Assembly: GCA_963517285.1 (NCBI GenBank)
Contig: CAUQDN010000001.1
Span: 108,205-172,204, forward strand
DNA length: 64,000 nucleotides
Direction of reading: 5' to 3'
DNA from: an uncultured Candidatus Saccharibacteria bacterium
Lineage (GTDB): Bacteria; Patescibacteriota; Saccharimonadia; Saccharimonadales; Saccharimonadaceae
How positions within the stretch are numbered: position 1 is the stretch's first letter; every line of letters starts with the position of its first letter. The translations under genes were made by a program, and so were the position numbers. Positions 45,074 to 63,631 of the stretch are shown here, one piece after another. The notes beneath the pieces were generated by a model that was not told the DNA's origin, made no database searches, and worked only from the letters and a program-made list of their open reading frames with translations.

Positions 45074-45158
45074 TGGTGCGGATGAAAGGACTTGAACCTT
45101 CACGCCTTGCGGCACTAGCTCCTAAGGCTAGCGTGTCTACCAATTCCACCACATCCGC
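45074..45158 (-). tRNA. tRNA-Leu (anticodon TAG)
   Basis: GCGGATG acceptor, D-loop TGGTAG, CTAGC-CTTAGGA-GCTAG anticodon arm, long variable arm, GGTTCAAGTCC, encoded CCA. Confidence 0.95.
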
Positions 45159-45288: not shown

Positions 45289-46890
45289 ATGAATAAGATT
45301 GCCGTGTATTTGAATCAGCACCTTCTCGGTGAGGTAACAAGTGCTAAGTCGCTTCGAAAACTGTACGCAACCGACGGAAGCGTATTAACTATCGATCCAG
45401 AAATCATTGCCTTTCCTCGGGTTACAAACGACATTCGTAAGATCGCTCGTTTTACCTGGCAGCTTGCCGAAAAAGGCCATAAGGTCGGTATGACCGTCCG
45501 CGGCTTTGGTGGTGACGCTACCGGAGCTTCAATCGGTAAGGGTATTATTATTGACACCTCAAAACAGCTCAATACAATTATCGAAGTTGCAGTAAAAGAC
45601 AAACTTATTCACGTCCAACCTGGCGTGTCTCTGTCTCAAGTAGAAGAAGCGCTTCGTTGGCAGGGCCTGACGGTTCCTGGTGCGTTTCATCGTGGCATGC
45701 GCCGTATTTCAGTTGGCGCGGCGATTGCTAACGACAGCCTTGGCGTAAATGGCAGTGTTTCGGATTCCATTAAGCGCCTCGAAGTCGTGCTTGCTAATGG
45801 TGACGTTATTGAAACGGGCCGTATGAGCAAGCGTGATATTAGTAAAAAGCTCGGGCTTCAAACGTTTGAAGGTGAAATTTACCGCAAACTCGAAGGCCTT
45901 CTTGAGGATAATGAAGAACTTATTAAAAAAATTGCCGCCGATACAGTACGTGACAATACTGGATATAAGCGCATCGCCGAGGTCAAGGAAAAAGATGGTT
46001 CGTTTGACCTTACACCTCTCTTTATCGGCAGCCAAGGGACCCTCGGCATTATTTCAGAAGCTGTTCTTAAAGCCGACTTTCTGTCTTTAAATGAAATTCA
46101 CGCCGTCATTACCACCGACTCGGTGCATGCGGCGCGCGACCTGAGTGAGCAAATCGTTGAATTGCAGCCAGCCGAGCTTACGGTTATCGACGGTGAACTA
46201 CTTCGTCGGGCGGCGGCTAATGGTTCGCAGTTCCCAATTGTTGGTGCGGTTGAGCAGCTCGGTGCTGTTACGTACGTTCGATTTAACGACTTTAACGAAC
46301 GTCATCAGCAGAAAAAGCTTAAAAAGCTTCACAAACTCCTTTCGAAAGAAAAGGTTGGCTTCGTTGATTCGACGAACCGTGAACCCGAAGATTTCCGTTC
46401 AATTACCGTCATCAGCCAAATCCTTCAACTCGGTGCTAACGACGGTGCGGTGGCTATTCCGATCATTAATGGCGCTTCAGTTCCAAGCAATCGCTGCGAA
46501 GAATTCGAGACGGCCCTTAAAGAACTGGCCGCAAAGCACCATATCGAGCTCCCTACCGAGTTTAATGTACTGACCTGTACTTATACGGTCTATCCGCTTT
46601 TGAAACTTGACTCAGTGAGCGACAAACAGAAGCTCTTTAAGCTCCTTACCGACTATGCAGTATTAATCGATCGTTGTGGCGGCGCCTTTACGGCAGACGG
46701 AGCAGAAGGCCGTGTAAAAGCGAATGCTGCGTGGGCGGTACTCGACGAAGATCATGCTAAGCTTTACGAGCAAGTTCGAGCTATCTTCGACCCATTCGGA
46801 ACACTCAACCCAGGTGTCAAGCAGCCAGGCGAGCTCCGTACGCTTGTAGCGTCTCTCCGCTCAAGCTACGACAGTGCAAGTGTGCTATAA
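45289..46890 (+). CDS. FAD-binding oxidoreductase (GlcD/D-lactate dehydrogenase-like, divergent)
   Basis: YATDGS, VRGFGG, VQPGV, LFIGSQGTLGII, FDPFGTLNPG. Confidence 0.8.
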   Translation: MNKIAVYLNQHLLGEVTSAKSLRKLYATDGSVLTIDPEIIAFPRVTNDIRKIARFTWQLAEKGHKVGMTVRGFGGDATGASIGKGIIIDTSKQLNTIIEVAVKDKLIHVQPGVSLSQVEEALRWQGLTVPGAFHRGMRRISVGAAIANDSLGVNGSVSDSIKRLEVVLANGDVIETGRMSKRDISKKLGLQTFEGEIYRKLEGLLEDNEELIKKIAADTVRDNTGYKRIAEVKEKDGSFDLTPLFIGSQGTLGIISEAVLKADFLSLNEIHAVITTDSVHAARDLSEQIVELQPAELTVIDGELLRRAAANGSQFPIVGAVEQLGAVTYVRFNDFNERHQQKKLKKLHKLLSKEKVGFVDSTNREPEDFRSITVISQILQLGANDGAVAIPIINGASVPSNRCEEFETALKELAAKHHIELPTEFNVLTCTYTVYPLLKLDSVSDKQKLFKLLTDYAVLIDRCGGAFTADGAEGRVKANAAWAVLDEDHAKLYEQVRAIFDPFGTLNPGVKQPGELRTLVASLRSSYDSASVL

Positions 46891-46928
46891 TTTCACATTG
46901 TAAGCTTCGGTCGAGCCGAGGCGCATAC

Positions 46929-47015
46929 GCGGATATGGCGAAATTGGTAGACGCGCTAGCTTCAGGTGCTAGTGTCAGCAATGACATGGAGGTTCAAGTC
47001 CTCTTATCCGCACCA
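46929..47015 (+). tRNA. tRNA-Leu (anticodon CAG)
   Basis: GCGGATA acceptor, CTAGC-TTCAGGT-GCTAG anticodon arm, long variable arm, GGTTCAAGTCC, encoded CCA. Confidence 0.95.
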
Positions 47016-47026
47016 ATGAGATGATT

Positions 47027-47056
47027 AAAATCAGGTAACTATAGTACCTGATTTTT
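47027..47056. terminator. Bidirectional terminator between tRNA-Leu(CAG) and the pilin gene
   Basis: AAAATCAGGTA-actatag-TACCTGATTTTT. Confidence 0.7.
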
Positions 47057-47060
47057 TATA

Positions 47061-48089
47061 TTAATTTACGAATGTTTTTAATTCGAAGTCATCAAACCGA
47101 AGTGACCCAGGTGTACCAGATACTACACCATTGCGTAGACCATAATAATTTCCAGCTGGTCGATCAGAAGCCGAGTCGGTGTATTGGAATAGTTGAGTAC
47201 CGTTTCGGAGGACGGTTACGCGTGTGGCGCCAGATAGGGTTTCAGTTCTTAAGGTTACTAAGTCGCCATTTGCTACAGTTCCGTTGCTACTCTCTCCTAA
47301 AGGATCGTTAGCCGACCCATAAAGCCATAGATGTCCATTCTCGCCACTTACCTCTACTACGTAGAATTTTGTAGTATTTTCAGCTCGAGCAATCAAGCCT
47401 GGGTAGTGACCATTGACCATACCAGAGAAACGTGCAGAAACCTCGGTAGCGGGTTCGGTAGCTGCGATGGCGACAAGATTACCATCGCCATTTGTTGAAG
47501 CGTACGCTTGATTACTTGAGATGCCCCATGTTCCATTTAAGCTTGTCCATGCTTGTCCTGTTTGCGCCGATCCAATATTATTAGTCGAGTTTGATCGGTT
47601 GAAGTTGTCTGATACGAGAACTACGGGTTGAGGGATTACTGGAGGAGTGTAGCCGGGTTGTTCACCGGTACCACTTGGGTCTGCATTACCGTCACCGATA
47701 ACCGTACCAACAATATGCGCCCCAGGACAATTTCCTTCCTTTAATCCAGCGACACTGTCAAAGTAATACTTAACCGAGGGAGAGCCAGCATAGGCGCCAT
47801 TAATACAGTATGAAGATCCACTTGCAGGTGTAGCAAGACTGAGGCCTACTTTAGGGCTGGTTTTGACTGTGCTCGGGAAACCTGTAACGGAAGCTGAATT
47901 ACTTCGATTAATTTCTACTGCGATCGCAGTAGCAGCTGAGCGTAGGTCACTTTGAACCGAAGCCGAAATGGCACTTTTTTGGACACCATTGTAAGAGACA
48001 ATAATGATAGAGGCGAGAATTGCAATTACAACTACTACAACGAGTAGTTCGACGATAGTGAAGGCTCGACTATTTCGTAATGTTTGCAT
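47061..48089 (-). CDS. Type IV pilin-like protein with Pro-rich linker and C-terminal beta-sandwich (lectin-like) domain
   Basis: A|FTIVELLVVVVVIAILA, YC...C pilin disulfide, PGYTPPVIPQP linker, SDNFNR...W...GTW...FDDF. Confidence 0.85.
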   Translation of the reverse strand: MQTLRNSRAFTIVELLVVVVVIAILASIIIVSYNGVQKSAISASVQSDLRSAATAIAVEINRSNSASVTGFPSTVKTSPKVGLSLATPASGSSYCINGAYAGSPSVKYYFDSVAGLKEGNCPGAHIVGTVIGDGNADPSGTGEQPGYTPPVIPQPVVLVSDNFNRSNSTNNIGSAQTGQAWTSLNGTWGISSNQAYASTNGDGNLVAIAATEPATEVSARFSGMVNGHYPGLIARAENTTKFYVVEVSGENGHLWLYGSANDPLGESSNGTVANGDLVTLRTETLSGATRVTVLRNGTQLFQYTDSASDRPAGNYYGLRNGVVSGTPGSLRFDDFELKTFVN

Positions 48090-48168
48090 AAGCGTTTTCT
48101 GAAGTATACCACTATGTATAAAACACTGGCAATTATTTTTTTATAAGGTTTTCCACTACACTATAACT

Positions 48169-48774
48169 ATGAACCAAACAGGCTATCCACCCCACCCAGA
48201 ACCTTGGCCCAATGATGACAAATATGACCGCGAACTTTTAAAGAATGGTGATTCGCGTAATGTACTCGATAAATACCGTTACTGGAAGGTTGAAGCAATT
48301 AAAAATGACCTCGACGCGCTGCGTCTACCGTTAGAGATTGCTGTCGAAAATGTGAGTCGTGACTTTAATATGGGCACGATTATCCGCACTGCCAATGCAC
48401 TTAATGTTAATAAAGTACATATTATTGGGCGCCGCCAGTGGAACAAGCGGGGAGCGATGGTAACTGATGTATATATGAATATTGAGTATCACGCGTCCGT
48501 AGAGGTTTTTGCGGCTGCTATGGAGCAGGCTGGGCGGCATATTTTAGCGATTGACATTATTCCAGGCGCAGTACCACTCACACAGGCGGAGCTGCCCGCT
48601 AAGAGTGTCTTGGTGTTCGGGTCAGAAAAAGATGGGGTCAGCGAACAATTACAAAAGGTATCTGAAGAAATTATTCATATTGAGCAGTTCGGTTCGACAC
48701 GCTCGGTCAATGTGGGTGTGGCTGCGGGTATTGTCATGTATGAGTGGGTTCGAAGGAATATATTGACCCCCTAA
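48169..48774 (+). CDS. TrmH/SpoU-family RNA methyltransferase (second copy)
   Basis: DFNMGTIIRTANA, FGSEKDG, RSVNVGVAAGI. Confidence 0.9.
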   Translation: MNQTGYPPHPEPWPNDDKYDRELLKNGDSRNVLDKYRYWKVEAIKNDLDALRLPLEIAVENVSRDFNMGTIIRTANALNVNKVHIIGRRQWNKRGAMVTDVYMNIEYHASVEVFAAAMEQAGRHILAIDIIPGAVPLTQAELPAKSVLVFGSEKDGVSEQLQKVSEEIIHIEQFGSTRSVNVGVAAGIVMYEWVRRNILTP

Positions 48775-48797
48775 TTTACGCGTGTCATACTAGTACT

Positions 48798-49415
48798 ATG
48801 ACAGAGCTATTCGGTCGAACTAGTGCGGGCAGGGTGCACGTCTTGCGCCAGTCTTTCCGGCCGAGTCAACTACTTAAAGAATTAATTGAAAAACACGCGG
48901 GTCCATCTATTGGGCCCGATTTTATACTTCATTCAACAAAGCAGGTGCTGGTTGATAGTGTCGAATATTCAAGAGGCGAGTATCGAGAGCAAGACAAGCT
49001 GGTTCGGGAAGCTTTGAAAGAAATTGGCCGTGAACCATTAGTGATTGGAAATGCGACAATTCGGCTAGCCGGAATCAAACAGCCAATATCTGAAGATCGG
49101 GTTGTCACTATCCCAAAGAAATTAAGAGTCAACCTTTTCCCAGTGGACGATAGCCGGCTTGAACATTTAGCATCTCTTTTAGATATATATCCATCAGTTG
49201 GCCCGTCGGTGCCGCCGCCGCACCACTTATATATTGACTTACCCCTCACCCATATTCCAACGAGAGCTGAGATAGAACAGAGGGATCTTGAAATCAATCA
49301 AGATATGCAAAATAGGTCGAATCCACGACTTTTAGCAGCAACCGTGCTGCACGTCATGGCCTCGGAGTGGCCTCGAAATCTACGAACGCCGTCTTCAACT
49401 GAAGCTGCTTCGTAG
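48798..49415 (+). CDS. Hypothetical protein
   Basis: Open frame; ATG 48798 lies 6 nt after a CATACT -10-like box. Confidence 0.6.
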   Translation: MTELFGRTSAGRVHVLRQSFRPSQLLKELIEKHAGPSIGPDFILHSTKQVLVDSVEYSRGEYREQDKLVREALKEIGREPLVIGNATIRLAGIKQPISEDRVVTIPKKLRVNLFPVDDSRLEHLASLLDIYPSVGPSVPPPHHLYIDLPLTHIPTRAEIEQRDLEINQDMQNRSNPRLLAATVLHVMASEWPRNLRTPSSTEAAS

Positions 49416-49471
49416 TATTTTTCATCTTAATTACTTGTTTGTACCCCTTAACCATGCGAGAATAGGGACAT

Positions 49472-50764
49472 ATGACAGCACTATCATCACAGCCGTATAA
49501 AGGCACGCGCGACTACTATCCTGAAGATAAGCGAGTACAAAATTATATTTTTGAAACCTGGAAGCGGGTTGTTGAGCGTTTCGGCTATGAAGAATACGGT
49601 GCGCCAATTCTTGAAAACCTGGAGATTTACGCGGCAAAAAGTGGCCAAGAACTCGTAAATGAACAAACGTACACCTTCACTGACCGTGGCGGTCGCACTG
49701 TTGCAATTCGCCCAGAGATGACTCCATCAATCAGCCGTATGGTTGCCGCGCGTCGTCAGGAATTAGCATACCCAGCACGGCTCTTCTCGATTGCTAACTT
49801 TATGCGATACGAGCGCCCACAACGTGGCCGTGAGCGTGAGTTTTGGCAGCTTAACGTCGATGTATTTGGCGTCGATGCAATTTCAGCAGATGTCGAAATT
49901 ATTACTATCGCGGATTCTATCTTGAAAGAATTTGGCGCCCAAGCTGGTGATTATATTATTCGTGTTAATAATCGTAAATTCATTCACTATATGATGGCTG
50001 AGTATCTTGGCCTCGATATTACTGCTGCTCAGCAGATGACAAAGCTCTTCGACCGTCGCGGAAAAATTACCGAGCAAGACTTTGACGAACAAGCGCTCCT
50101 TATTTTAGGTGACACCCAAACCGAAGATTTGACAAAGATAAAGCAAATTCTTGACGCAAAAGATATTGCATCGCTTCCTGAAGGGCTGCAACACGCGTCA
50201 GCACTTGATGAGATCAAGGCGGTCTTCGATGGACTTAAATCAGCAGGCGTTGACGGCGCAGTCTTTGATGCAACTCTGATGCGCGGCCTCGATTACTATA
50301 CCGGTACCGTCTTTGAAGTATTTGATACTCATCCAGATAATAACCGTTCGCTCTTTGGGGGTGGTCGCTACGATGGTCTCGTTGGCCTTTTTGGAGCCGA
50401 GCCTATTAGCGCTGTTGGTATGGCTCCAGGTAACACCATGATTGAAAACTTCCTAGACGTTCACGGGCTGCTTCCTGCCAATGCGTCGAAAACTGATGTT
50501 TATGTCGTTGTTATTAATGAGGCACTTGACGGCGCACTTAAGGTAGCTGCCCAGCTGCGCCATGCCGGCTTTAATGTAGAAATCGATATTACGGGACGAA
50601 AACTCGATAAGCAAATTAAGACAGCGGTAAAAAAGAATATCCCATACCTCTTATTTGTAGGTCCTCAAGACGTCGAGACGGGTGAGTACTCACTGAAGAA
50701 TGTTGAGTCTGAAACCGAGGCGAAGCTTACGGTTGAACAAATCGCCGAAAAGCTCCAAGGCTAG
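49472..50764 (+). CDS. hisS: Histidine--tRNA ligase
   Basis: RPEMT, RYERPQRGR.REF.Q, RGLDYYTG, GGGRYD. Confidence 0.97.
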   Translation: MTALSSQPYKGTRDYYPEDKRVQNYIFETWKRVVERFGYEEYGAPILENLEIYAAKSGQELVNEQTYTFTDRGGRTVAIRPEMTPSISRMVAARRQELAYPARLFSIANFMRYERPQRGREREFWQLNVDVFGVDAISADVEIITIADSILKEFGAQAGDYIIRVNNRKFIHYMMAEYLGLDITAAQQMTKLFDRRGKITEQDFDEQALLILGDTQTEDLTKIKQILDAKDIASLPEGLQHASALDEIKAVFDGLKSAGVDGAVFDATLMRGLDYYTGTVFEVFDTHPDNNRSLFGGGRYDGLVGLFGAEPISAVGMAPGNTMIENFLDVHGLLPANASKTDVYVVVINEALDGALKVAAQLRHAGFNVEIDITGRKLDKQIKTAVKKNIPYLLFVGPQDVETGEYSLKNVESETEAKLTVEQIAEKLQG

Positions 50765-50812
50765 TCGTCGGATTTGTCAGTTACTTTCACCTCTGTTATA
50801 CTAGAAAGTAAT

Positions 50813-52117
50813 ATGAAGACGACTGTAAAAAACCTATCCGAGACCAAAGTTGAAGTAACTATTACGCTTGATGCAAAAGAACTTTCTGACGCTGAGCAAG
50901 TTGCTGTAACGAAGCTAAGTAAAACTGTTAAAGTTCCTGGCTTTCGTGAAGGCAAAGTACCTGCAAGCGTCGCTGCAAAGCACGTAAACCCACAAGCACT
51001 TCAAGAACAACTTCTTGACGATGCTATTAGTAAGGCAATTGCCGAAGCTTTCTTATCTGAAAAAATTCAAGCACTCGACCGTCCAGCTGTTGATGTAAAG
51101 AAATATGTTCCTAGTGAACTCCTTGAGTTCGTCGCTGAGGTTGAAGTGCTACCTCCAGTAACCCTTGGTGACTACAAGAAGCTTACGAAGAAAGCTGAAA
51201 AAGTATCAGTAACCGATGAAGAAGTAACCGACGTGATTGAGCGCATGCGCCAAGGCTTCGCTGAAAAGAAAGATGTTGAACGTGCCGCAAAAGATGGTGA
51301 TGAAACGGTAATCGACTTTGTTGGCAAGAAAGACGATGTTCCATTCGATGGCGGTACTGGTACTGACTACACCTTAAAACTTGGTTCAAACCAATTTATT
51401 CCTGGATTTGAAGAGGGTATTGTTGGTCATAAAGCAGGTGAGACATTTGATCTAACCCTCACATTCCCTGACGATTACCACGCCAAAGACCTTGCAGGCC
51501 AAGAAGTTGTCTTCACAACTACTCTAAAGAAGGTAATTGAGCTGGTCCTTCCTGAAGCGGGCGACGAACTCGCTAAAAAAGCCGGCACTTTTGAAACGCT
51601 TGATGAACTTAAAGAAGACATCAAACGTGAAATTACGACTCAAAAAGAAAACGAAGCAGCTAATAAACTTAAAGACGATCTTATTGAAGAGCTGATTGAA
51701 AAGAGCACCGTTCCAGCACCTGAGGTGCTCGTAGCTGACCAAATGCGTTCAATTGAGCAAGACTTCGCTCAAAACCTTATGTACCGTGGTCTCGATCTCC
51801 ACACGTACCTTGAAGCAAACAACTTTAAAGACGAAGATGACTGGCGCGAAAAGGAAGTCAAGCCTGCTGCAACTCGCCGTACTCAAGCCGGTCTTGTTCT
51901 TAATGAACTTACCAAAGCTGAAAACATTACCGCAACCGACGCTGAAATTGACGAACACGTAGAAGTTCACAAGCGCCAGTATGTGAACAACCCAGAAGTA
52001 CTGAAGCAATTTGAAACACCAGAAGTTCGCCGTGACATTGCGAACCACTACGTTACCGAAAAGGCAATCGAACGCCTTGTTGAACTTAACGGTGGTAAAG
52101 TAACTCCTCACAACTAA
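50813..52117 (+). CDS. tig: Trigger factor
   Basis: [14 protein letters not shown] domain (FIPGFEEG); start placed at ATG 50813. Confidence 0.95.
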
Positions 52118-52135
52118 TCAAGCGATATGACAAAA

Positions 52136-52162
52136 TTAGCACTCCCTTGACGAGAGTGCTAA
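52136..52162. promoter_or_regulatory. CIRCE operator (HrcA site) overlapping the clpP promoter
   Basis: Exact TTAGCACTC-N9-GAGTGCTAA; TTGACG within the spacer, TACAAT at 52171-52176. Confidence 0.93.
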
Positions 52163-52200
52163 TTTTTATGTACAATAAAAGACATAAAGAGGTATATGGT

Positions 52201-52797
52201 ATGAGTAATCCTAAAAACTATTTGGTTCCGACAGTTATTGAAAAGTCGCATGACGGTGAACGTGCATTTGATATTTATTCACGTCTATTAAAAGATCGCA
52301 TTATTTTCTTAGGTGAAGAGGTGAATGAGCACACCGCTAATATTGTGATTGCGCAGTTGCTTTACCTTGCGTATGAAGACCCAAAGAAAGATATTAAGCT
52401 ATATATCAACAGCCCGGGCGGTAGTGTTTATGATGGGCTTGGCATTTACGACACTATTCAATTTATTCAACCCGACGTACAAACAATCGGCATTGGACTA
52501 CAGGCAAGTATGGGGGCATTCCTGCTCTCAAGCGGCACAAAAGGAAAGCGCTTCGCACTACCAAACAGCCGTATTATGATTCACCAGCCATCAAGCGGTA
52601 CGCAAGGTAAGATTAGTGACCAAGAAATTACGCTGCGTGAAGGCCTGTTCCTTAAGCAAAAGCTGAATGAAATTCTTGCTAAAAACACCGGACAGAAGCT
52701 GAGTAAAATTGAAAAAGACGCTGACCGCGATTTCTGGATGAGTGCTAAAGAAGCCAAAGACTATGGCTTGATCGATGAAATCATTGAAAAATCGTAA
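52201..52797 (+). CDS. clpP: ATP-dependent Clp protease proteolytic subunit
   Basis: [33 protein letters not shown]. Confidence 0.97.
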
Positions 52798-52811
52798 AAA
52801 AGTTGTATAGT
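52784..52811 (+). promoter_or_regulatory. Sigma70-type promoter for the high-GC cassette
   Basis: TTGAAA (52784-52789), 16-nt spacer, TATAGT (52806-52811); the -35 lies inside the clpP 3' end. Confidence 0.6.
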
Positions 52812-52861
52812 TTAACAAGGTCGTCTTGACCCTAGTAGCATCATTCATGCAAGGGGGAATC

Positions 52862-53188
52862 ATGCAGTACGGCGGATTTGTTTGGGCGTTTGTCATCCTC
52901 TCTGTGATGTTGTTCCTGGCCGCGAACTTCAGCTTCGCGAACAAGGACGAGGTCGATCACGGCCTCGTGCCGTCACGTCGGAACGAGTACTGGGCGCTGT
53001 TCTTCTTCCTGATGGCGCTGAGTGTGCCTCTCATGGTGATCGAGCTCTACACGGGCGTCTCCATCCTGCAGTACCTGACGTGGTGGTCCACTCTGACGTG
53101 GATCTCGGGCGTATCGCTGCTCTTCTGGATGAACCGCCTGGCTATCACCTTCGTGGTGAAGGCGAGCGACAGCTTCGTTCACGAGTAG
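52862..53188 (+). CDS. Small 3-TM membrane protein with strongly atypical high-GC3 codon usage
   Basis: AAGGGGGAATC-ATG SD; 94 of 108 codons end in G/C (hand count); three hydrophobic segments. Confidence 0.8.
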   Translation: MQYGGFVWAFVILSVMLFLAANFSFANKDEVDHGLVPSRRNEYWALFFFLMALSVPLMVIELYTGVSILQYLTWWSTLTWISGVSLLFWMNRLAITFVVKASDSFVHE

Positions 53189-53252
53189 GTGACCTTCTGC
53201 GTGTGACAGAATAAGACGGGGTGGAATTGATTTTCCGAACCGTCATCACACA

Positions 53253-53303
53253 GCTTTCATTACCTGAGCGGGTAATCTGATGAGTCCAAAAGGACGAAAA
53301 GGC
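53253..53303 (+). ncRNA. Hammerhead ribozyme, type III
   Basis: GCUUUC^ AUUACC-UGAGCG-GGUAAU CUGAUGA GUCC-AAAA-GGAC GAAA AGGC: complete core, stems I, II, III; predicted cleavage after C53258 (UUC triplet). Confidence 0.92.
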
Positions 53304-53334
53304 GAAAATAGTTGAAAAACACCTATAATATCTC

Positions 53335-53363
53335 TTGATTTATTGGGATAAAAGTCGCATAAT
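53335..53363 (+). promoter_or_regulatory. Putative rpoB promoter
   Basis: TTGATT-17 nt-CATAAT. Confidence 0.55.
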
Positions 53364-53531
53364 GGCTACTAAGAAGTAGTGTAGCCCTGGTTATCTATGC
53401 CGTTAAATTGGTGGGATATATCGTTGAAGAGGATGTGGCAGTCCCACTTCAACCCAGAGGTTAAGGGAATCTTCGGCGCCAAAGAAACCCCCAATATCAA
53501 ACCCCATAATTAACTGCGAGGTCCATTATTT

Positions 53532-56500
53532 ATGGCAAGTACTAAAAGTACGAACACTAAGCGTGTGTTTTTCACTAGTGACGACACAGCGCTTTCACTA
53601 CCAAACTTAATTCAACATCAACGCGATAGCTGGAAAGAATTTGTCGAGACTGGTCTCGGTGAAATCTTTGCAGAACTCAATCCAATCGATGACTACACCG
53701 GCCAAAAGCTGGCGCTTCGTTTTGGTAAGTACGCGTTTCAGGAGCCAAAAGTTTCAGAAGTTTTCGCAAAAGAAAACAATGTGACTTTTGATGCTCCGCT
53801 TCATGCTATCGTTGAGCTTACCAACAAGGTAACCGGCGAAGTAAAAGAGCAGGAAATCTACCTTGGTGACTACCCATGGATGACCGACCGCGGTACATTC
53901 ATCATTAACGGTACTGAGCGTGTGGTTGTTTCTCAACTTATCCGTTCTGCTGGTGTATTCTTCACCGCCGACCGTGCAGCAAGTCGTAGCTACTACGGTG
54001 CGAAGCTTATTCCGGGCCGTGGCGCATGGCTCGAGTTTGAGACTGCTTCAAACGGTGCTATCTACGTTAAAATCGACCGTCGTCGTAAACTGCCTGTAAC
54101 GACACTTTTCCGCGCACTCGGTTACAACAAGACCTCAGAAATTAAAGACCTCTTTGCTGACATCGACACCGGTGAAGTAAAGTATCTCGACGCAACTCTT
54201 GAAAAAGACCCAGCTCGTGGCACTAATGAAGCTCTTATTGAAGTCTATCGCCGTCTCCGTCCAGGTGACCTCGCAACCGTTGATAACGCGCGTTCGATGA
54301 TCGAGCGTATGTTCTTCGACTTCAAGCGCTTCGACTACAGCCGTGTTGGCCGTTACAAGCTTAACCAACGTCTTGGTCTTGAAGTAGCTAACACTACTGA
54401 AAACCGCGTATTCCAAGTTTCTGACCTTATTGCTATCGTTCGCGAAGTGATCCGTCTTAACAACACTCAAGAAGAACCAGACGACATCGACGCACTTTCA
54501 AACCGTCGCGTCAAGCTCGTTGGTGAACTTGTAGCTCGTCAGTTCCGCGTTGGTATGCTCCGTATGCAACGTAACGCTATGGACCGTATGAGCATGAGCG
54601 ACCTTGAAACTGTGAGCCCATCTCAACTCATTAACGCTCGCCCAGTAGTTGCTGCAGTTCGTGAATTCTTCGCAAGCTCACAACTTTCACAACTTATGGA
54701 TGAGACTAACCCAATGGCAGAACTTGCTCACAAGCGTCGCCTTTCATCAATGGGTCCTGGTGGTCTTTCTCGTGAACGCGCCGGCTTCGACGTGCGTGAC
54801 GCCCACCCAACTCATTACGGTCGTCTTTGTGCCGTAGAAACTCCAGAAGGTGCGAACATTGGTCTTGTGCTTAACCTTGCGTCATATGCTCGTATTAACG
54901 AGTACGGATTCATCGAGACTCCATACCTCAAGGTTGAAAACGGTAAGGTGACTGACGAAGTTATCTACCTCGATGCTTCACAAGAAGCTCTCGAAGTGAT
55001 TGCTGACGCCGGCGTTGAACTTAATGAAGACGGTACTTTCAAAGAAGAGCGTGTATCTGCTCGTAACGGTCTGCTCCCAGAGCAAGTTGACGTTGCTGAA
55101 GTTACCCTCATGGACGCAGCCCACAAGCAAATCCTTGGTGCAACTGCCGCCCTCGTGCCATTCGTAGAGAAGAACCGTGTTGACCGTTCATTGATGGCCG
55201 CAAGCATGCAGAAGCAAGCTGTGCCTCTTCTTCAGCCTCAATCTCCAACTGTTGGTACTGGTATTGAAGAGGAAATCGCTCGTAACACCAGCCAGCTCGT
55301 CGTTGCTGAAGGTGACGGTGAGGTTATTCGCGCCGACGGTAATGCAGTTGAAGTGAAGTACAAAGAAGGTGTGAAGACCTACGAACCAGTTCACTTTGTT
55401 AAGTCAAACGATGACCGTTCAATCAACCAAAAAGTTTGTGTTGTTCGTGGTCAAAAGGTTAAGGCTGGCGACATTCTTATTGAAGGTGCTTCAGTTGCTG
55501 ACGGTGAAATCGCCCTAGGTAAGGACCTTCTCGTAGCTTTCATGCCATGGAACGGGTACAACATGGATGACGCGATCGTGCTTTCACGCAAACTCGTTGA
55601 AGACGACACACTTACAAGCGTAAACATCAAGGACTACACAGTTGAAGTTCGTGAAACTAAGCTTGGTCCAGAAATCGTCACTCGTGACATCCCGAACGTT
55701 TCAGAAGAGTCACTTCGTCACCTCGACGAAAATGGTATCGTTCAACTTGGTTCAGAAGTTAAGGCTGGCGACGTGCTCGTTGGTAAGATTACTCCAAAGG
55801 GTGAGCAAGAGCTCAGCTCTGAGGAACGTCTGCTTCGTGCAATCTTCGGTGAAAAGGCTAAGGATGTTCGTGACACCTCACAACGTATGAACAATGCTGG
55901 TGGTGGTAAGGTAGTTGGCGTTAAGATCTTTAGCCGTGAAAACGGTCACGAACTTAAGGCTGGTGTCCTTATGCAAATTCAAATCTTCGTTGCTCAATTC
56001 CGTAAGATCTCAGTAGGTGACAAGCTTGCTGGTCGTCACGGTAACAAGGGTGTTGTGGCTCGTATTCTCCCTGCAGAAGACATGCCATTCCTCGAAGACG
56101 GTACTCCAGTTGACGTGGTGCTTAACCCACTCGGTGTGCCAAGCCGTATGAACATTGGTCAGCTCTTTGAGACTCACCTTGGTATGGCAGCTCGCGCACT
56201 TGGTTACAAGGTTGCGACCCCTCCATTTAACGGTATTCCAGACGCAGTGATCTCTGACGAGCTTGAAAAAGCTGGCTTTGCTCGCGATGGTAAGAGTCAA
56301 CTCTTCGATGGCCGTACTGGAGAACCATTTGAAGAACGAACTACTGTTGGTGTGATGCACATGCTTAAGCTTCACCACATGGTTTCTGACAAGATTCACG
56401 CCCGTTCAACTGGTCCTTACACTATGGTGACCCAACAGCCACTCGGTGGTAAGGCACAAAACGGTGGTCAGCGCTTCGGTGAGATGGAGGTGTGGGCACT

Positions 56501-56894
56501 TGAAGCATATGGCGCTGCTGCAACACTTCAAGAAATGCTTACTATTAAGTCTGACGACGTGTACGGTCGTGCTAAAGCGTACGAATCAATCATTAAGGAC
56601 GAACCAATTGTCGGTCCAAAACTTCCTGAGTCATTCAATGTCCTCGTAAAGGAACTTCAAGGTCTCGGTCTTCGTGTTGACCTAATGGACGAATCAGAAG
56701 ATGCGATTGTCGACGCTGAACATGTCATTGGTAGTGTTATCAACGGCCAGCCAGTCGCTGCGTCTGAGGTAGACCTTGGTGATGAAGTAGAAACAATTCT
56801 CGATGAAGCCGATGCTGAAATGGACGATCTTGATAAAGACGGTCTAAGTATCCAAGATATCGATGAAGTAGAAGAAATTAAGGAGGAGGCGTAA
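53532..56894 (+). CDS. rpoB: RNA polymerase beta subunit
   Basis: FIINGTERVVVSQL, GDKLAGRHGNKG, GGQRFGEMEVWALE. Confidence 0.99.
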   Translation: MASTKSTNTKRVFFTSDDTALSLPNLIQHQRDSWKEFVETGLGEIFAELNPIDDYTGQKLALRFGKYAFQEPKVSEVFAKENNVTFDAPLHAIVELTNKVTGEVKEQEIYLGDYPWMTDRGTFIINGTERVVVSQLIRSAGVFFTADRAASRSYYGAKLIPGRGAWLEFETASNGAIYVKIDRRRKLPVTTLFRALGYNKTSEIKDLFADIDTGEVKYLDATLEKDPARGTNEALIEVYRRLRPGDLATVDNARSMIERMFFDFKRFDYSRVGRYKLNQRLGLEVANTTENRVFQVSDLIAIVREVIRLNNTQEEPDDIDALSNRRVKLVGELVARQFRVGMLRMQRNAMDRMSMSDLETVSPSQLINARPVVAAVREFFASSQLSQLMDETNPMAELAHKRRLSSMGPGGLSRERAGFDVRDAHPTHYGRLCAVETPEGANIGLVLNLASYARINEYGFIETPYLKVENGKVTDEVIYLDASQEALEVIADAGVELNEDGTFKEERVSARNGLLPEQVDVAEVTLMDAAHKQILGATAALVPFVEKNRVDRSLMAASMQKQAVPLLQPQSPTVGTGIEEEIARNTSQLVVAEGDGEVIRADGNAVEVKYKEGVKTYEPVHFVKSNDDRSINQKVCVVRGQKVKAGDILIEGASVADGEIALGKDLLVAFMPWNGYNMDDAIVLSRKLVEDDTLTSVNIKDYTVEVRETKLGPEIVTRDIPNVSEESLRHLDENGIVQLGSEVKAGDVLVGKITPKGEQELSSEERLLRAIFGEKAKDVRDTSQRMNNAGGGKVVGVKIFSRENGHELKAGVLMQIQIFVAQFRKISVGDKLAGRHGNKGVVARILPAEDMPFLEDGTPVDVVLNPLGVPSRMNIGQLFETHLGMAARALGYKVATPPFNGIPDAVISDELEKAGFARDGKSQLFDGRTGEPFEERTTVGVMHMLKLHHMVSDKIHARSTGPYTMVTQQPLGGKAQNGGQRFGEMEVWALEAYGAAATLQEMLTIKSDDVYGRAKAYESIIKDEPIVGPKLPESFNVLVKELQGLGLRVDLMDESEDAIVDAEHVIGSVINGQPVAASEVDLGDEVETILDEADAEMDDLDKDGLSIQDIDEVEEIKEEA

Positions 56895-56896
56895 AC

Positions 56897-59800
56897 ATGT
56901 CGCGCGTTGTTCAAACTCAAAACAATGGCATCGCTGACTTTGACGCTATCCGTCTTAGTGTCGCGAGTCCAGAGGATATACTTAAATGGAGCTACGGAGA
57001 AGTTACTAAGCCTGAAACTATTAACTATCGTACCCAAAAACCTGAACGCGATGGTCTTTTCTGTGAACGAATCTTCGGTCCAGTAAAGGACATCAACCCA
57101 CACGACTCAAAGCTCAAGGGAGTTCGCTCTCGTGAAGCAGCTGTCGATAAGAATGGTGACCTCGTTACGAAGTCTATCGTTCGTCGTGAGCGCATGGGTC
57201 ACATTAGCCTTGCTGCACCAGTTGCTCACATCTGGTTCATGCGTGGTACACCGAGCGCAATGTCGTTGCTCCTTGGTATTACCGTTCGTAACCTCGAACG
57301 CATTGCTTACTTTGCTACCTACGTAGTATTGAAGGCTGATGAAGAAACTCGCGACAAGTTCCTCGCTGACCTTGAAGCTGAAACCGAAGCTGGCCGTATG
57401 GCTATCAAGATGCGTTTCGAAAAAGAAGCTGAAGCTGAAACTGCCGACGTAAAGGCGCTTGCGGAAGCTCAAACTCGTGAACTTAACGACCTCGACGAGG
57501 CATACACCCTTAAGAAGTCGCAACTTGAAAGCCTTACTCGTAACTCACTCATGAGTGAAGTTGACTACCGTAACCTTCCAGAGGAATACCAAGACCTCAT
57601 CGAAGTTGGTATGGGTGGCCAAGCACTCAAGGCACTTCTTGATAACATCGACCTTGAAACCCTTATTGCTGAACTTACCGAAGAAGCAGAAGGTGCTAAG
57701 GGTCAACGTGAAAAGAAGATTCTCAAGCGTCTTAAGGTACTTGAAGGTATGCAAGCCGCTGGCATCAAGCCAAGCAGCCTTACGTTGACGGTTCTTCCAG
57801 TGATTCCTCCGGACCTACGTCCAATGGTGCAACTTACTGGTGGTCGTTTCGCAACTTCAGACCTCAACGACCTTTACCGTCGTGTGATTAACCGTAACAA
57901 CCGTCTTAAAAAGCTTATCGAGCTTAACGCTCCTGAAGTAATCCGCCGTAACGAAATGCGTATGCTTCAAGAAGCTGTTGATGCGTTGGTTGACAACTCA
58001 GCTGCTCGCGGTGGCCGTGCTGTAAACGCGACTGGTGGACGCCGCCGTCTTAAGTCGATCTCTGACATGCTTAAGGGTAAGCAAGGTCGTTTCCGTCAAA
58101 ACCTTCTTGGTAAGCGTGTAGACTACTCTGGTCGTTCTGTGATCGTGGTTGGTCCAAAGCTTAAGATCAACGAGTGTGGTCTTCCAAAGCAAATGGCTCT
58201 TGAGCTCTTTAAGCCTTTCGTTATTAGTTGGCTTATCCGTAACGAGTACGCTCACAACATCCGTTCAGCAACTCGTCTTATCGAGGCTGGTGAAGCAGTA
58301 GTATGGGATGCACTTGATGCAGTGATTGAAGGTAAGTACGTTCTCTTGAACCGTGCTCCATCACTTCACCGTCTTTCAATTCAAGCTTTCCAACCTCGCC
58401 TCGTTGAAGGTAAGGCTATCCAACTTCACCCACTCGTAGCAAACGGATTCAACGCCGACTACGACGGTGACCAGATGGCAGTTCACCTTCCACTCTCACG
58501 TCAAGCGCAAGAAGAAGCTCGTACACTCATGAGTGCGACAGCTAACCTTCTTAAGCCAGCCGATGGTGCACCGGTACTTTCAATCGGTCAGGACGTGGTG
58601 CTTGGTAACTACTACCTTACTTACAATAAGCCGAGCGCAGCGAGTGATGTTGTAAAGCCATTTAGCTCAGTTTATGAAGCTGAAATGGCATACGACAACA
58701 AGGTAATTCAACTTCAAACCCCAATCCGTGTATTCGCGAAGGGTGAAGTTCGTAATACAACTCTTGGACGTGTATTCTTCAACGAAATTCTTCCAGAAGA
58801 CTTTCCATTTGACGACAACGTACAAAGCAAGAAGCAACTCAAGAAGGTCTTGAGCCAAATCTTCAACCAGTACGGTGCTGAAATGACTGCACAAACTGCT
58901 GACCGCATGAAGGGTCTCGCATTCCGTTTCGCAACTGTATCAGCTGTATCAACCGGTAAAGATGACTACATTCAATTCGCAGAAACTGACGAATTCATCG
59001 CTGAAGGTGACGCAAAGGTAGCTCTGATTTCTGAACAATATGACCAAGGTCTTATTACAGAAGAGGAGCGCTACAACCTTACCGTTGCTACGTGGCGTGG
59101 TGTGGTTCGTCAAACTACCGAGTTCCTTCAAACTAAGTTGAAGGACATGGATACCAGCGTGTCTGTGATGGTTAACTCTGGAGCTCGTGGTGATATCTCG
59201 AACGTCCAGCTTGCAAGCGCCATGATTGGTATCATGGTTGACGCAACGAACCGTGAGATTGAGCTTCCGATTCGTTCAAGCTACAAGAAGGGTCTTTCAA
59301 GCCTTGAGCAATTCGTGGCTACCCGTGGTTCACGTAAGGGTCTTATCGACACCGCGCTGAAGACTGCCGACTCAGGTTACCTTACTCGTCGTCTCGTAGA
59401 CGTGTCGCAAGACGTGTTTACTGTTGAAGACATGGAAGGTGACGATGATGGATTCACTATCTACCGTAACGAAACTGAATTAACAATGATCGACTTTGGT
59501 AACCGTCTTTATGGACGGTACGCTGCAGAAGACATTGCGGGTCACGTAAAGCGTAACGAGCTTATTACTCGTGAAATCGCCAACGCGATTGAAGCTGATA
59601 ACGAAATCACCGAAGCGAAGATTCAATCAGTTCTTTCAACGAAGAACCTTCGCGGTGTGCCTCGCCGAAGCTACGGTATCGATATGTCTACTAACCAACT
59701 CGTTGCAGACGCTCAGCCAGTAGGTGTGATCGCCGCACAGTCAGTTGGTGAGCCTGGTACGCAGCTTACCCTCCGTACCTTCCACGCATCTGGTGTGGCT

Positions 59801-60751
59801 GAAAGCGACATTACCCAGGGTCTCCCTCGTGTGGAAGAACTCTTCGAAGCACGTTCTCCAAAGGGTCAAGCATACGTTACTGAAGTAACTGGTGTGGTTG
59901 AAGCTTGGGAAGACGGCAAGAAGTACATCGTTCAAGTAACTCCAGAAGCTGGTCATGTTGAACGTATCGCCCTTGAAGGCCGTACTGCAAACGTTAAGAA
60001 CGGCGCTAACGTAAAGGCTGGTGATGTTCTTGCGACTGGTGAGAGCGAAAGCAAGCCAATCGTTTCACCATTTGATGGTGTGGTTGAAATCACCGACGAA
60101 TTCGTTGTACTTGCAGCAAACGCTGGTGCACCTGTTCGTTACGAAGTACCTGGTAACAACCAACTTCTCGTTAAGAGCGGTGACGTTGTTGAAGCAGGTG
60201 ACCGTCTTACCGGTGGATCACTCAACCTTCACGACCTCATGCGCCTTAAAGGTGTTGAAGCAACACAACGTTACATCATTAACGAAGTGCTCCGCATCTA
60301 CGCTGCGCAAGGTCAAGACGTTGCCGACAAGCACCTCGAGATCATCGTTCGCCAAATGTTCAGCCGTGTTCAGGTTGAAGATCCAGGGGATGGTGACTTC
60401 GTAACCGGCGACATCGTATCTCGTGCCGCAGTGGTTGAAGCTAACGACGAGCTTGTGGCTGAAGGTAAAGATCCAATCGCTTACACACAACTGCTCCTTG
60501 GTATTACAAAGGTATCAATCTGGTCTGACAGCTGGCTTTCAGCCGCATCATTCCAAGACACTACCCGCGTTCTTATCAATGCAGCCGTAAGTGGACGCAG
60601 CGACAACCTTCACGGTCTTAAGGAAAATGTGATCATCGGTCGCAAGATTCCTGTCGGTACCGGTGTGCACAGTGCAACTGCGCTCGACACACTCGAAAGC
60701 GATACTGAGATCGAAGTTGAAATCGCTGAAGATACTGACGCGATTGCCTAG
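56897..60751 (+). CDS. rpoC: RNA polymerase beta' subunit
   Basis: KPETINYRT, GKRVDYSGRS, NADYDGDQMAVH, AQSVGEPGTQLT. Confidence 0.99.
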   Translation: MSRVVQTQNNGIADFDAIRLSVASPEDILKWSYGEVTKPETINYRTQKPERDGLFCERIFGPVKDINPHDSKLKGVRSREAAVDKNGDLVTKSIVRRERMGHISLAAPVAHIWFMRGTPSAMSLLLGITVRNLERIAYFATYVVLKADEETRDKFLADLEAETEAGRMAIKMRFEKEAEAETADVKALAEAQTRELNDLDEAYTLKKSQLESLTRNSLMSEVDYRNLPEEYQDLIEVGMGGQALKALLDNIDLETLIAELTEEAEGAKGQREKKILKRLKVLEGMQAAGIKPSSLTLTVLPVIPPDLRPMVQLTGGRFATSDLNDLYRRVINRNNRLKKLIELNAPEVIRRNEMRMLQEAVDALVDNSAARGGRAVNATGGRRRLKSISDMLKGKQGRFRQNLLGKRVDYSGRSVIVVGPKLKINECGLPKQMALELFKPFVISWLIRNEYAHNIRSATRLIEAGEAVVWDALDAVIEGKYVLLNRAPSLHRLSIQAFQPRLVEGKAIQLHPLVANGFNADYDGDQMAVHLPLSRQAQEEARTLMSATANLLKPADGAPVLSIGQDVVLGNYYLTYNKPSAASDVVKPFSSVYEAEMAYDNKVIQLQTPIRVFAKGEVRNTTLGRVFFNEILPEDFPFDDNVQSKKQLKKVLSQIFNQYGAEMTAQTADRMKGLAFRFATVSAVSTGKDDYIQFAETDEFIAEGDAKVALISEQYDQGLITEEERYNLTVATWRGVVRQTTEFLQTKLKDMDTSVSVMVNSGARGDISNVQLASAMIGIMVDATNREIELPIRSSYKKGLSSLEQFVATRGSRKGLIDTALKTADSGYLTRRLVDVSQDVFTVEDMEGDDDGFTIYRNETELTMIDFGNRLYGRYAAEDIAGHVKRNELITREIANAIEADNEITEAKIQSVLSTKNLRGVPRRSYGIDMSTNQLVADAQPVGVIAAQSVGEPGTQLTLRTFHASGVAESDITQGLPRVEELFEARSPKGQAYVTEVTGVVEAWEDGKKYIVQVTPEAGHVERIALEGRTANVKNGANVKAGDVLATGESESKPIVSPFDGVVEITDEFVVLAANAGAPVRYEVPGNNQLLVKSGDVVEAGDRLTGGSLNLHDLMRLKGVEATQRYIINEVLRIYAAQGQDVADKHLEIIVRQMFSRVQVEDPGDGDFVTGDIVSRAAVVEANDELVAEGKDPIAYTQLLLGITKVSIWSDSWLSAASFQDTTRVLINAAVSGRSDNLHGLKENVIIGRKIPVGTGVHSATALDTLESDTEIEVEIAEDTDAIA

Positions 60752-60761
60752 GTAACCTAGC

Positions 60762-60802
60762 GCACATAAAAAGCACCTCATAACGGGGTGCTTTTTATGT
60801 GC
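60762..60802 (+). terminator. Intrinsic terminator after rpoC
   Basis: GCACATAAAAAGCACCTC-ataac-GGGGTGCTTTTTATGTGC. Confidence 0.85.
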
Positions 60803-60846
60803 CTATGCTTGCGATGAAAGGGAGGGGAGGGGTATAGTTTATTGAT

Positions 60847-61479
60847 ATGGAAAATAACGAGCCTCTCTCTTTTGTTAAGCCGTTTGAACCGCAACAAGTT
60901 CAGCTTCTTGAGCATGAGAAAAAGGAGTCCGCAGAGCTATTTGTAATGCTCTTCGATAGCCTCGGTGCGAAATATAAAGCACACACCCGTACGGTTGAAG
61001 ATGATACGCAATTAGGGAAGGTGGCAACCTTTGAGACGCCGCTTGTTATTCCTTTCCCGGATACTTCCTTTGTATATGCACTCATCTATGGTCACAGGGT
61101 TGGAGGTGCCATTACGAATAGAATGATTTCACTGGAAGAATATGACGCAAATCATAAACCAGTAAGAGGGTATACCTATGGGCTCACTGGTGGAGAATTT
61201 ACCCGAACGAGTAATACTGCTGAAGACATTGAAATGCAACGAGGTTATTTTAGCATGATTGATTGGCAAAATGATGCATTAGCACTTGATATGCAAGAAC
61301 ATAGTGAAGATGCCGATGAAAGAGAGCAGGCTGAAGCAATAAAAAGTCGACAAGCGCAAGATGCAATGATCGCTTCCTATGAAGAAGAGCTAGGATATGA
61401 TGGTCAAGTTCCTGATGAGAAGGAAGTATACCAGCTATCAGACCTCCTTTGGGGTGCTATTCCGTTTGTTCAACGATAA
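60847..61479 (+). CDS. Hypothetical acidic protein
   Basis: 210-aa ORF with its own -10 (TATAGT) 8 nt upstream; no recognised motif. Confidence 0.7.
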   Translation: MENNEPLSFVKPFEPQQVQLLEHEKKESAELFVMLFDSLGAKYKAHTRTVEDDTQLGKVATFETPLVIPFPDTSFVYALIYGHRVGGAITNRMISLEEYDANHKPVRGYTYGLTGGEFTRTSNTAEDIEMQRGYFSMIDWQNDALALDMQEHSEDADEREQAEAIKSRQAQDAMIASYEEELGYDGQVPDEKEVYQLSDLLWGAIPFVQR

Positions 61480-61534
61480 CAGCCGTTATCTTTACATTTT
61501 CACCTCTTTCTGCTATAGTTAATCACGAGTTTCC

Positions 61535-61634
61535 ATTCATTCTCATCGTAAGTGTGTACAAGAGCGATGAGCGAGATGAATCCGCTTCATAAGGCGTGCT
61601 GGCCTGTGAAGCAAACACTTAACTAGAAGGTGTT
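61535..61634 (+). promoter_or_regulatory. Candidate structured 5' leader of rpsL
   Basis: Three tandem hairpins downstream of TGcTATAGT (61511-61519). Confidence 0.5.
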
Positions 61635-61668
61635 ATCTAACTAAATTTAAGAGGAAGTTTATTGTTCT

Positions 61669-62082
61669 ATGCCAACAATCAATCAACTCGTGCGTAAGCC
61701 ACGCCAGACTGCGAACAAGAAGTCAAAGTCTCCAGCGCTCGGCCGTATTCACAACGCACTAAAAACTCGTTACTACGACCAAAACGCACCGCTTAAGCGT
61801 GGTGTTTGTGTTAAGGTAACAACTAAGACACCAAAGAAGCCTAACTCAGCGCTTCGTAAGGTTGCTCGTGTTCGTCTTACTAATGGTCACGAAGTATGGG
61901 CTTACATCGGCGGTGAAGGTCACAACCTCCAAGAACACGCCGTCGTGCTTGTTCGTGGTGGTCGTGTGCCAGACCTTCCGGGTGTTCGTTACCACATCGT
62001 TCGTGGTGCTCTCGACCTCCAAGGTGTCGCTAAGCGCGCACAGGGTCGTTCTAAGTACGGTGCAAAGAAGGAGAACAAGTAG
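61669..62082 (+). CDS. rpsL: 30S ribosomal protein S12
   Basis: [38 protein letters not shown]. Confidence 0.98.
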
Positions 62083-62084
62083 TC

Positions 62085-62564
62085 ATGCCACGTAAGAAAA
62101 CAGTCAGCCTACAGCGAATTCCTACTCCAGACCGCAAATACCAAAGCGTCATGGTACAGCGTCTTATCAACAAGTCTATGCTCGATGGTAAGAAGCTCGT
62201 TGCTGAGCGTGCAGTTTACACTGCACTTGAAGTAGCAGCTAAGAAGCTTGATAGCGAAAATCCACTTGAAGTGTTTGAAAAGGCACTCAAGAACGTATCT
62301 CCAAACTTCGAAGTTAAATCTCGTCGTGTTGGTGGTGCAAACTACCAAATCCCATTCCCAGTTGCTGGTCACCGCCAGTTGCACTACGCCTTCTCATGGC
62401 TCGTACAAAGCGCGCGTGCTCGTAAGGGAATCCCATACAGCCAACGCCTTGCCCTTGAAATCGTTGATGCATACAACGAAACCGGTGCAGCCTTCAAGAA
62501 GAAGGAAGACACCCACAAGATGGCTGAAGCCAACCGTGCATTCGCACACTTCGCTCGCGGATAA
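62085..62564 (+). CDS. rpsG: 30S ribosomal protein S7
   Basis: EVKSRRVGGANYQ, HKMAEANRAFAH. Confidence 0.98.
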   Translation: MPRKKTVSLQRIPTPDRKYQSVMVQRLINKSMLDGKKLVAERAVYTALEVAAKKLDSENPLEVFEKALKNVSPNFEVKSRRVGGANYQIPFPVAGHRQLHYAFSWLVQSARARKGIPYSQRLALEIVDAYNETGAAFKKKEDTHKMAEANRAFAHFARG

Positions 62565-62582
62565 TATATCCTCGAACATCTC

Positions 62583-62614
62583 AAAAACCACCCGTGATTT
62601 GTCGGGTGGTTTTT
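62583..62614 (+). terminator. Intrinsic terminator after rpsG
   Basis: AAAAACCACCCG-tgatttgt-CGGGTGGTTTTT. Confidence 0.85.
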
Positions 62615-62632
62615 ATTTGGTATGATGAGCTT

Positions 62633-63598: not shown

Positions 63599-63631
63599 AT
63601 TAGCATGCGCCAGTAGTACTATAGTCCGTAT

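Follow-up and report, generated by a model that had tools for sequence, protein, structure and literature searches.

Introduction

Hammerhead ribozymes of bacteria have been described near integrases and as flanks of inconstant prophage genes (Perreault et al. 2011, PMC3088659, as far as its available text goes). The same part of that paper proposes that they perhaps cut long transcripts into gene-length mRNAs, and it calls the functions of bacterial hammerheads unclear. Fast natural hammerheads share a tertiary contact between a loop I of the form UNmYN and a loop II of the form RNnA, according to the accessible sections of PMC2632901. Our literature search, in which subscription journals were thinly covered, found no paper on hammerheads in the bacterial group treated below; Dataset S1 of PMC3088659 may contain such sequences.

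For the fate of a ribozyme product, glmS offers a comparison. According to the available parts of PMC10810187 and PMC8501993, its 3' product is broken down by RNase J1, an enzyme that acts on 5'-OH ends and can dislodge stalled polymerase. In the available part of PMC10810187, the halting of an elongating polymerase by RNase J1 is treated as not established.

The DNA studied here, referred to as the window, is a stretch of 64,000 nucleotides from an uncultured Candidatus Saccharibacteria bacterium. At 914,568 bases the genome is small, and it is near complete (98.95%); the source bacterium is tiny and likely host-dependent. Flanks from records labelled Saccharibacteria were matched by its genes at 11 of 29 loci (median identity 66%), compared with 1 of 29 for other Patescibacteria and 0 of 14 for other taxa, in keeping with a Saccharibacterium. 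Cultured Saccharibacteria mostly grow on Actinobacteria (PMC10633639, available text). Two 16S genes were seen (G000:C2:5-1480 and G000:C3:8-1517). They are 71.7% alike, and the 4-kb contig C3 is probably a stray.

A type III hammerhead motif

The motif occupies 53253..53303 on the + strand, with a predicted cut between C53258 and A53259. The 5' strand of stem III (GCUU, 53253-56) runs into the cleavage triplet UUC (53256-58). Stem I (AUUACC, 53259-64, with GGUAAU, 53271-76; loop UGAGCG) is followed by the core CUGAUGA (53277-83), stem II (GUCC, 53284-87, with GGAC, 53292-95; loop AAAA), the core GAAA (53296-99) and the 3' strand of stem III (AGGC, 53300-03), all on the + strand. A three-way junction with the core elements CUGANGA, GAAA and NUH is present; loops close stems I and II and stem III is open, which is the type III topology.

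A first-pass annotation of the sequence had listed these stems and core elements, and each base was read out where it had been placed. Stem III needed redrawing: GCUUU/AAGGC with one G-U had been given, of which four pairs remain (U-A, U-G, C-G, G-C), including the U-G, the fifth being the core U16.1/A15.1 opposition. The annotated type III hammerhead with a loop I-loop II contact is supported by the topology and by the sequence fit of UGAGCG to UNmYN and AAAA to RNnA, the motifs in the accessible sections of PMC2632901. Nothing on the UUC triplet was found in the available part of PMC1636495.

The minimum free energy fold of the motif in isolation is the hammerhead, with a stability that is unremarkable against shuffles (z -0.87 to -1.20). 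The Infernal search proposed in the annotation, with the Rfam model Hammerhead_3 (RF00008), gave a match at 53251-53305 in which the whole model was aligned (E 1.4e-4, 901 nt searched). Its score of 31.3 bits is below the gathering score of 48.5, so a gathering-threshold scan of the whole window misses the motif, and we class it by structure as a type III hammerhead, not as a curated member of RF00008. No other Rfam ribozyme or RNA family appeared near the site at E <=10. A rule scan for the core plus stems returned two matches in the 914-kb genome, with stems summing to 16 bp in both, against two matches in total at the loosest setting, and none at 14 bp or more, in 12 order-4 Markov copies of the genome. 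We conclude that 53253..53303 is a genuine type III hammerhead motif, ordinary as a ribozyme, for which self-cleavage is predicted from the sequence.

The second hammerhead of the genome (L073, G000:C1:382350-382408, +; listed as C1:382378) has the same 23-nt core and stem II and lies 221 kb away, 83 nt 3' of a two-gene high-GC unit. A further candidate, a string resembling the core at about 442.8 kb of contig C1, behind the Clp_N genes, was rejected, as the covariance model of the family (R1, below) gave no match there at E <=1.

The clpP-rpoB slot

The motif is bordered on the left by clpP (52147..52797, +) and on the right by a gene that we take, from reading its translation, to be rpoB (53532..56894, +). 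The first-pass annotation had spoken of a core-genome intergenic region. The location between housekeeping genes holds, but the gap contains a GC-rich orphan ORF and varies among relatives.

The orphan unit starts with a sigma70-type promoter-like site, TTGAAA-16 nt-TATAGT (52784..52811, +; a 10/12 consensus match only). It overlaps the clpP stop, with a start predicted near 52817, and a weaker promoter-like site lies at 52812-52841. A Shine-Dalgarno (SD)-like tract (52851..52858, +; anti-SD duplex -10.0 kcal/mol) precedes the ATG at 52862. The ORF (52862..53188, +; alternative starts 52826 and 52847) encodes 108 aa with a GC3 of 0.87; the 452 long genes of the genome have a median of 0.44. 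Its hydrophobic stretches suggest a small membrane protein. No homologue of the protein was found among 1.84 billion representatives or in a second search, no Pfam family matched at the cut-off, and Atlas matches at 0.87-0.88, under 0.9, are leads only.

A hairpin fills the 3' UTR (53199..53254, +), composed of an inner stem-loop (53215-53244, -14.1 kcal/mol) and an outer helix reaching to 53254. The inner hairpin is followed by a single T in 8 nt, that is, the U tract of an intrinsic terminator is absent, and the terminator scan gave no terminator-like site at this hairpin. The predicted cut falls 70 nt 3' of the orphan stop, and this copy belongs to the subtype with a long hairpin running up to the cut. 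The promoter-like site of rpoB (53335..53363, +) follows downstream of the ribozyme, an arrangement also visible in relatives; lying 5' of this site, the hammerhead is outside the 5' UTR location of the glmS type.

Across 18 genus loci, 46 columns of the rpoB leader itself (53369-53531, +) are invariant, arranged around variable hairpins. The leader had no Rfam match at E <=10 and is a candidate for a new cis-regulatory RNA; the consensus fold on the alignment is poor. Elsewhere in the window, two tRNA genes have long variable arms (45077-45158, -, and 46929-47012, +).

For the comparison of the slot 20 loci were available. One is this genome and one is without rpoB, leaving 18 relatives (L003 comes from the unpublished genome G030). 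No hammerhead core was found in the clpP-rpoB gap of any of the 18. The gap measures 188-1193 nt in the 16 relatives holding both genes and is near-empty in three. It often holds unrelated orphans, several of which, judged by eye, have hairpin-plus-U-tract ends (L006, L008, L011, L015). Because the content differs among relatives, we regard the gap as a variable slot and not as conserved core sequence. A search of 52700-53600 for target-site duplications or terminal repeats of a mobile element found only short, chance-level repeats, and no integrase or prophage genes were apparent by eye in 46000-64000 (the Pfam scan covered five proteins of the window).

Contigs from four metagenome runs of two studies hold the same 3' module behind different upstream sequence; such runs provide contigs, in which transcript ends are not visible, and a search for RNA runs containing the stretch listed none. 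In one contig, of 746 nt, the clpP end is linked to the module by 409 other letters, replacing 393. Contig variants within 53253-53303 affect the loop positions 53267, 53269, 53270 and 53288, two further ones keep pairing (C53263T, giving U-G, and G53301A, turning U-G into U-A), and none of those listed falls in the core. In contigs of two runs (X5 and X9; 53221-53358), the start of the 3' hairpin is kept and the hammerhead is skipped before the rpoB promoter. With a short side of 26 nt and the letters between not known, this junction hints only weakly at replacement of the ribozyme.

Distribution and covariation of the family

A pattern search of the genus yielded 30 loci, 22 with full type III hammerheads. 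When these and the second copy of the genome were aligned (23 copies), 94.7% of the cells were paired, compared with 25-48% in slid controls, and two-sided changes occurred in 14 of 15 pairs; the core is invariant among the 23 by construction, as the search pattern demanded it. With the covariance model R1, the family was detected in 24 of 40 genus genomes and in 20 of 151 genomes sampled across the phylum. In the Saccharibacteria-like order, it was present in 57 of 151 genomes, representing 50 of 120 genera, with as many as 14 copies. The genus and order tallies take in the unpublished genomes G030 and G072.

A strict pattern of the subtype, run over named genomes, returned 128 stretches from 9 of 64 collection parts. 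Among the first matches listed (80 of 128), 29 carried the label Saccharibacteria and 29 that of other Patescibacteria, eight were unlabelled and 14 came under other taxa. Some records with the subtype are labelled Nanoarchaeia, Bdellovibrionales or uncultured Gammaproteobacteria (L189, L135, L126, L174, L184, L200), for which binning errors are possible. The same subtype was present in 121 stored viral stretches. In the 62 units of the family described below, loop I begins with U in 47 and fits UNmYN in 33, and loop II ends in A in 60. The family escapes the Rfam cut-off. In Patescibacteria, it is the mark of a class of transcripts that are rich in GC and highly folded.

Position at the ends of orphan genes

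The retrieved loci contained 63 distinct hammerheads; one from an unpublished genome was dropped, leaving 62 units. GC was higher upstream than downstream of the hammerhead in 60 of the 62. In 46 of 62 units, as opposed to 6 of 62 in the mirror control, a same-strand ORF of at least 90 aa and a GC3 of at least 0.62 had its end no more than 300 nt ahead of the cut. The median stop-to-cut distance across the family was 95 nt. The downstream gene was on the same strand in 33 of 63 loci, convergent in 23 and not called in seven. Altogether the 62 units carry 51 cargo families and face 47 different downstream contexts, and one cargo family keeps its hammerhead in four different contexts. An independent set of named Saccharibacteria (23 copies with enough flank) behaved similarly: a same-strand ORF ended upstream in 20 of 23 versus 5 of 23, and a high-GC3 ORF in 13 versus one. 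The GC step, the upstream ORF ends and the varied downstream genes indicate that the ribozyme belongs to the upstream gene.

In four loci (L054, L056, L074, L090), members of one cargo family (29-75% identical) are followed by hammerheads of a subtype with a 5-bp stem I and then by four different downstream genes. This pattern suggests movement of the whole unit.

These positions bear on an explanation of the ribozyme as an insulator of rpoBC, kept here to cut read-through from tig, clpP and the orphan off the rpoB leader. In metagenome contigs the module again precedes the rpoB promoter with a different insert on its 5' side (409 versus 393 letters), so it is resident at the slot in one lineage, and the leader, highly conserved over 18 loci, could be disturbed by read-through. 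On the other hand, none of the 18 relatives has a hammerhead in the slot, three of them being almost gapless, and at family level a downstream gene that is convergent in 23 of 63 loci and the 47 contexts in 62 units do not fit a service to rpoB. We judge an insulating role unlikely. The first-pass annotation had proposed that cleavage uncouples read-through of clpP and the ORF from rpoBC. Such a separation would follow if the motif cleaves; the role itself probably lies with the orphan upstream, as the family is tied to that side and the promoter-like site of rpoB lies after the ribozyme.

The viral copies raise the question of a phage passenger, a hammerhead that arrived in a phage-type cassette and is neutral or decaying here. 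Besides its presence in 121 viral stretches, the subtype sits after gene ends there too (an ORF ended upstream in 47 of 62 viral copies, against six in the control), hammerheads flank variable prophage genes in the available text of PMC3088659, and stem III of the copy at 53253..53303 is short and includes a G-U pair. A decaying passenger agrees poorly, however, with contig variants that preserve core and pairing while the upstream sequence turns over, or with a family that covaries and spans 50 of 120 genera; moreover, only 4 of the 62 viral copies have high-GC3 cargo. We consider this origin improbable.

Gene ends and RNA decay

Of the 62 hammerhead units, 42 had a 3' hairpin at least as stable as -10 kcal/mol. 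This hairpin was followed by a U tract (at least 5 U in the next 8 nt) in 2 of 42, compared with 17 of 49 high-GC units of the genome (Fisher p 5e-4). In a separate scan, a terminator-like site lay within 100 nt of the stop in 4 of 62 hammerhead units and in 13 of 49 high-GC units (p 0.007). Both p values overstate the difference because the compared sets are kin, from different genomes, and the high-GC set (54 called) includes a few false ORFs. A missing U tract is not peculiar to hammerhead units, since 32 of 49 high-GC units also have none directly after the hairpin. Counting against a replacement of terminators, a terminator-like site follows the hammerhead within 200 nt in 13 of 62 cases.

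The genome encodes RNase J and PNPase; Rho, RNase E/G and RNase R/II were not found in it, nor was Rho found in any of 40 genomes of the genus (a tally that includes the unpublished G030). A 2',3'-cyclic phosphate at a 3' end would slow PNPase.

We propose that the hammerhead, placed behind a GC-rich orphan with a promoter-like site of its own, probably cuts the transcript after C53258 and so forms a 3' end that replaces the hairpin-plus-U-tract terminator. The unit anatomy on which this proposal is built (promoter-like site and SD, then the orphan ORF, a hairpin that has no U tract, and the hammerhead) was found here and recurs across the order. RNA polymerase would read through the 3' hairpin, after which the ribozyme would fold and cut behind C53258. 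The upstream mRNA, of about 440 nt, would retain the hairpin and end in a 2',3'-cyclic phosphate. With RNase J present and no detectable Rho, RNase J would break down the 5'-OH fragment left downstream and might thereby release the polymerase in torpedo fashion. rpoB would be made from its own promoter, its shielding from read-through being a side effect.

That ribozyme and RNase J together constitute a natural, Rho-free way of ending genes is a tentative extension, and we hold it to be doubtful. The family keeps to one place, behind orphan genes that change fast, and takes turns there with ordinary terminators. If the proposed formation of 3' ends holds, a self-cleaving RNA would be a natural gene-end signal in bacteria.

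Folding in the transcript and fate of the mRNA

Equilibrium folding gave stem III a probability of 0.79 in the isolated motif. The value was 0.06-0.27 when the 3' UTR was included and 0.0 for the whole mRNA, in which stem I also dropped to 0.19. Stem III is predicted to be weak in context because G53253 and C53254 are drawn into the upstream hairpin. The median in-context probability of stem III in the family was 0.05 (below 0.3 in 41 of 62 units), so the copy at 53253..53303 is no outlier. The folding model leaves out the hammerhead core and the tertiary contacts, and the low values may perhaps reflect a limit of the model; they give no support to the ribozyme either.

Pairing between leaders and tails pointed to another possible use of the cut, the maturation of a closed mRNA, in which an exact 3' tail would pair with the 5' leader and hide the ribosome site, protect the ends or mark the molecule for delivery to a host. 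A promoter could be assigned in 44 of 62 hammerhead units, and in 22 of these the own 5' leader was among the best 10% of partners for the 3' tail. The usual form is a 5' hairpin, then often a helix of 10-14 bp ending about 9 nt before the cut. By group, fold-back units numbered 5 of 11 in named Saccharibacteria, 1 of 8 in other Patescibacteria, 0 of 6 in other taxa and 3 of 30 among viral units (30 of the 33 were tested). It was also seen in 11 of 35 non-hammerhead high-GC units of the genome, compared with 5 of 32 core genes drawn from 95, a difference that was not significant. For the copy at 53253..53303, fold-back was rejected: 31 of 43 foreign leaders pair as well as its own, or 23-39 of 43 with another start. 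The whole-mRNA fold does pair 52818-52823 with 53190-53195 at about 0.85, and foreign leaders do likewise. The half of the hammerhead units with a favoured own leader, the share among named Saccharibacteria and the other high-GC units speak for a closed mRNA; its rarity outside Saccharibacteria and the unspecific pairing at this locus speak against it. Overall, we rate such maturation as rather unlikely.

In the leaders of six loci (L062, L068, L081, L084, L099, L109), inspection by eye showed a recurrent short stretch of the form purine-AC-pyrimidine, with the 5' hairpin on one side and the closing helix on the other. It adjoins the place where the cut 3' end would lie.

The 16S gene on contig C2 has an intact anti-SD. 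SD sites preceded 41% of 441 scored core genes versus 13% at internal ATGs, and 62% of 50 scored high-GC genes versus 23% at internal ATGs. A reading in which the high-GC genes are readable by host ribosomes only was rejected on these grounds: with an intact anti-SD and SD sites in use by core genes, nothing forces high-GC mRNAs onto host ribosomes, and this weakens the delivery version of the closed mRNA as well.

The high-GC genes form a scattered set of about 50 ORFs of high GC3, mostly orphan-looking, each with a promoter-like site, an SD and a long 3' hairpin. Their cargo includes a stand-alone C-terminal domain of the RNA polymerase alpha subunit (L392, G000:C1:378750-379001) and three tandem Clp_N-domain proteins (L393, G000:C1:442822-444654), which could be decoys for polymerase or protease partners.

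It is improbable, in our estimate, that the GC-rich orphan mRNAs are a separate class built to last outside their maker and passed to a high-GC host for translation. Under this reading, the 5' hairpin, closing helix, host-like GC3, 3' hairpin and cyclic-phosphate end would all serve the delivered molecule, and RNase J would end transcription behind the cut. If true, mRNA would be delivered between bacteria as an effector.

Pairing of 5' and 3' ends would also bring them together for circularisation, as expected of a retrozyme- or viroid-like element whose hammerheads release the unit, and some relatives (L092, L099) have hammerheads about 600-700 nt apart. The present unit, however, has a single hammerhead, the second genomic copy is 221 kb off and no direct repeat with two hammerheads was seen. 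In L092 and L099, every tandem unit has its promoter-like site, from which triphosphate 5' ends would be expected. Circularisation by RtcB was rejected, as RtcB was not found in the genome. An element of this kind is highly improbable here. The preferred reading of the cut remains the formation of an mRNA 3' end.

Comparison with known systems

With the type III hammerheads of viroids and satellite RNAs (RF00008), the motif shares the core, the topology, the UNmYN loop I and the RNnA loop II. It differs in being a chromosomal single copy behind a protein gene, in its UUC triplet and in an Rfam score under the cut-off, and the rolling-circle context is absent.

Like the bacterial hammerheads in the available text of PMC3088659, it stands next to a small, inconstant gene. 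The clusters of that text differ from the present arrangement of one hammerhead, on the 3' side only of a promoter-bearing unit between housekeeping genes; there is one at the unit, and the two in the genome are 221 kb apart. Cargo rich in GC3, a long hairpin before the cut and a helix closing 5' and 3' ends in half of the family also set it apart from what that text describes.

As with glmS and RNase J1, the predicted self-cleavage would provide a 5'-OH entry for the RNase J of the genome (PMC10810187 and PMC8501993, accessible parts). glmS is ligand-dependent, is located in the 5' UTR and destroys the coding part of its mRNA, whereas a cut behind the coding part would preserve it here.

Intrinsic terminators have the same position and the same preceding GC-rich hairpin, and the two alternate in the slot among relatives. 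The difference would lie in an end made by RNA catalysis after read-through and carrying a cyclic phosphate, with release of the polymerase requiring another step.

Type I toxin mRNAs (hok, aapA) are controlled by 5'-3' fold-back, and 22 of 44 family units resemble them in having a 3' tail that pairs with the leader. They differ in that the cargo here is diverse (51 families in 62 units) and fold-back is unsupported for the copy at 53253..53303. Compared with these systems, what is out of the ordinary is the likely role of the hammerhead, the forming of 3' ends on orphan genes rich in GC, in an entire order of tiny bacteria.
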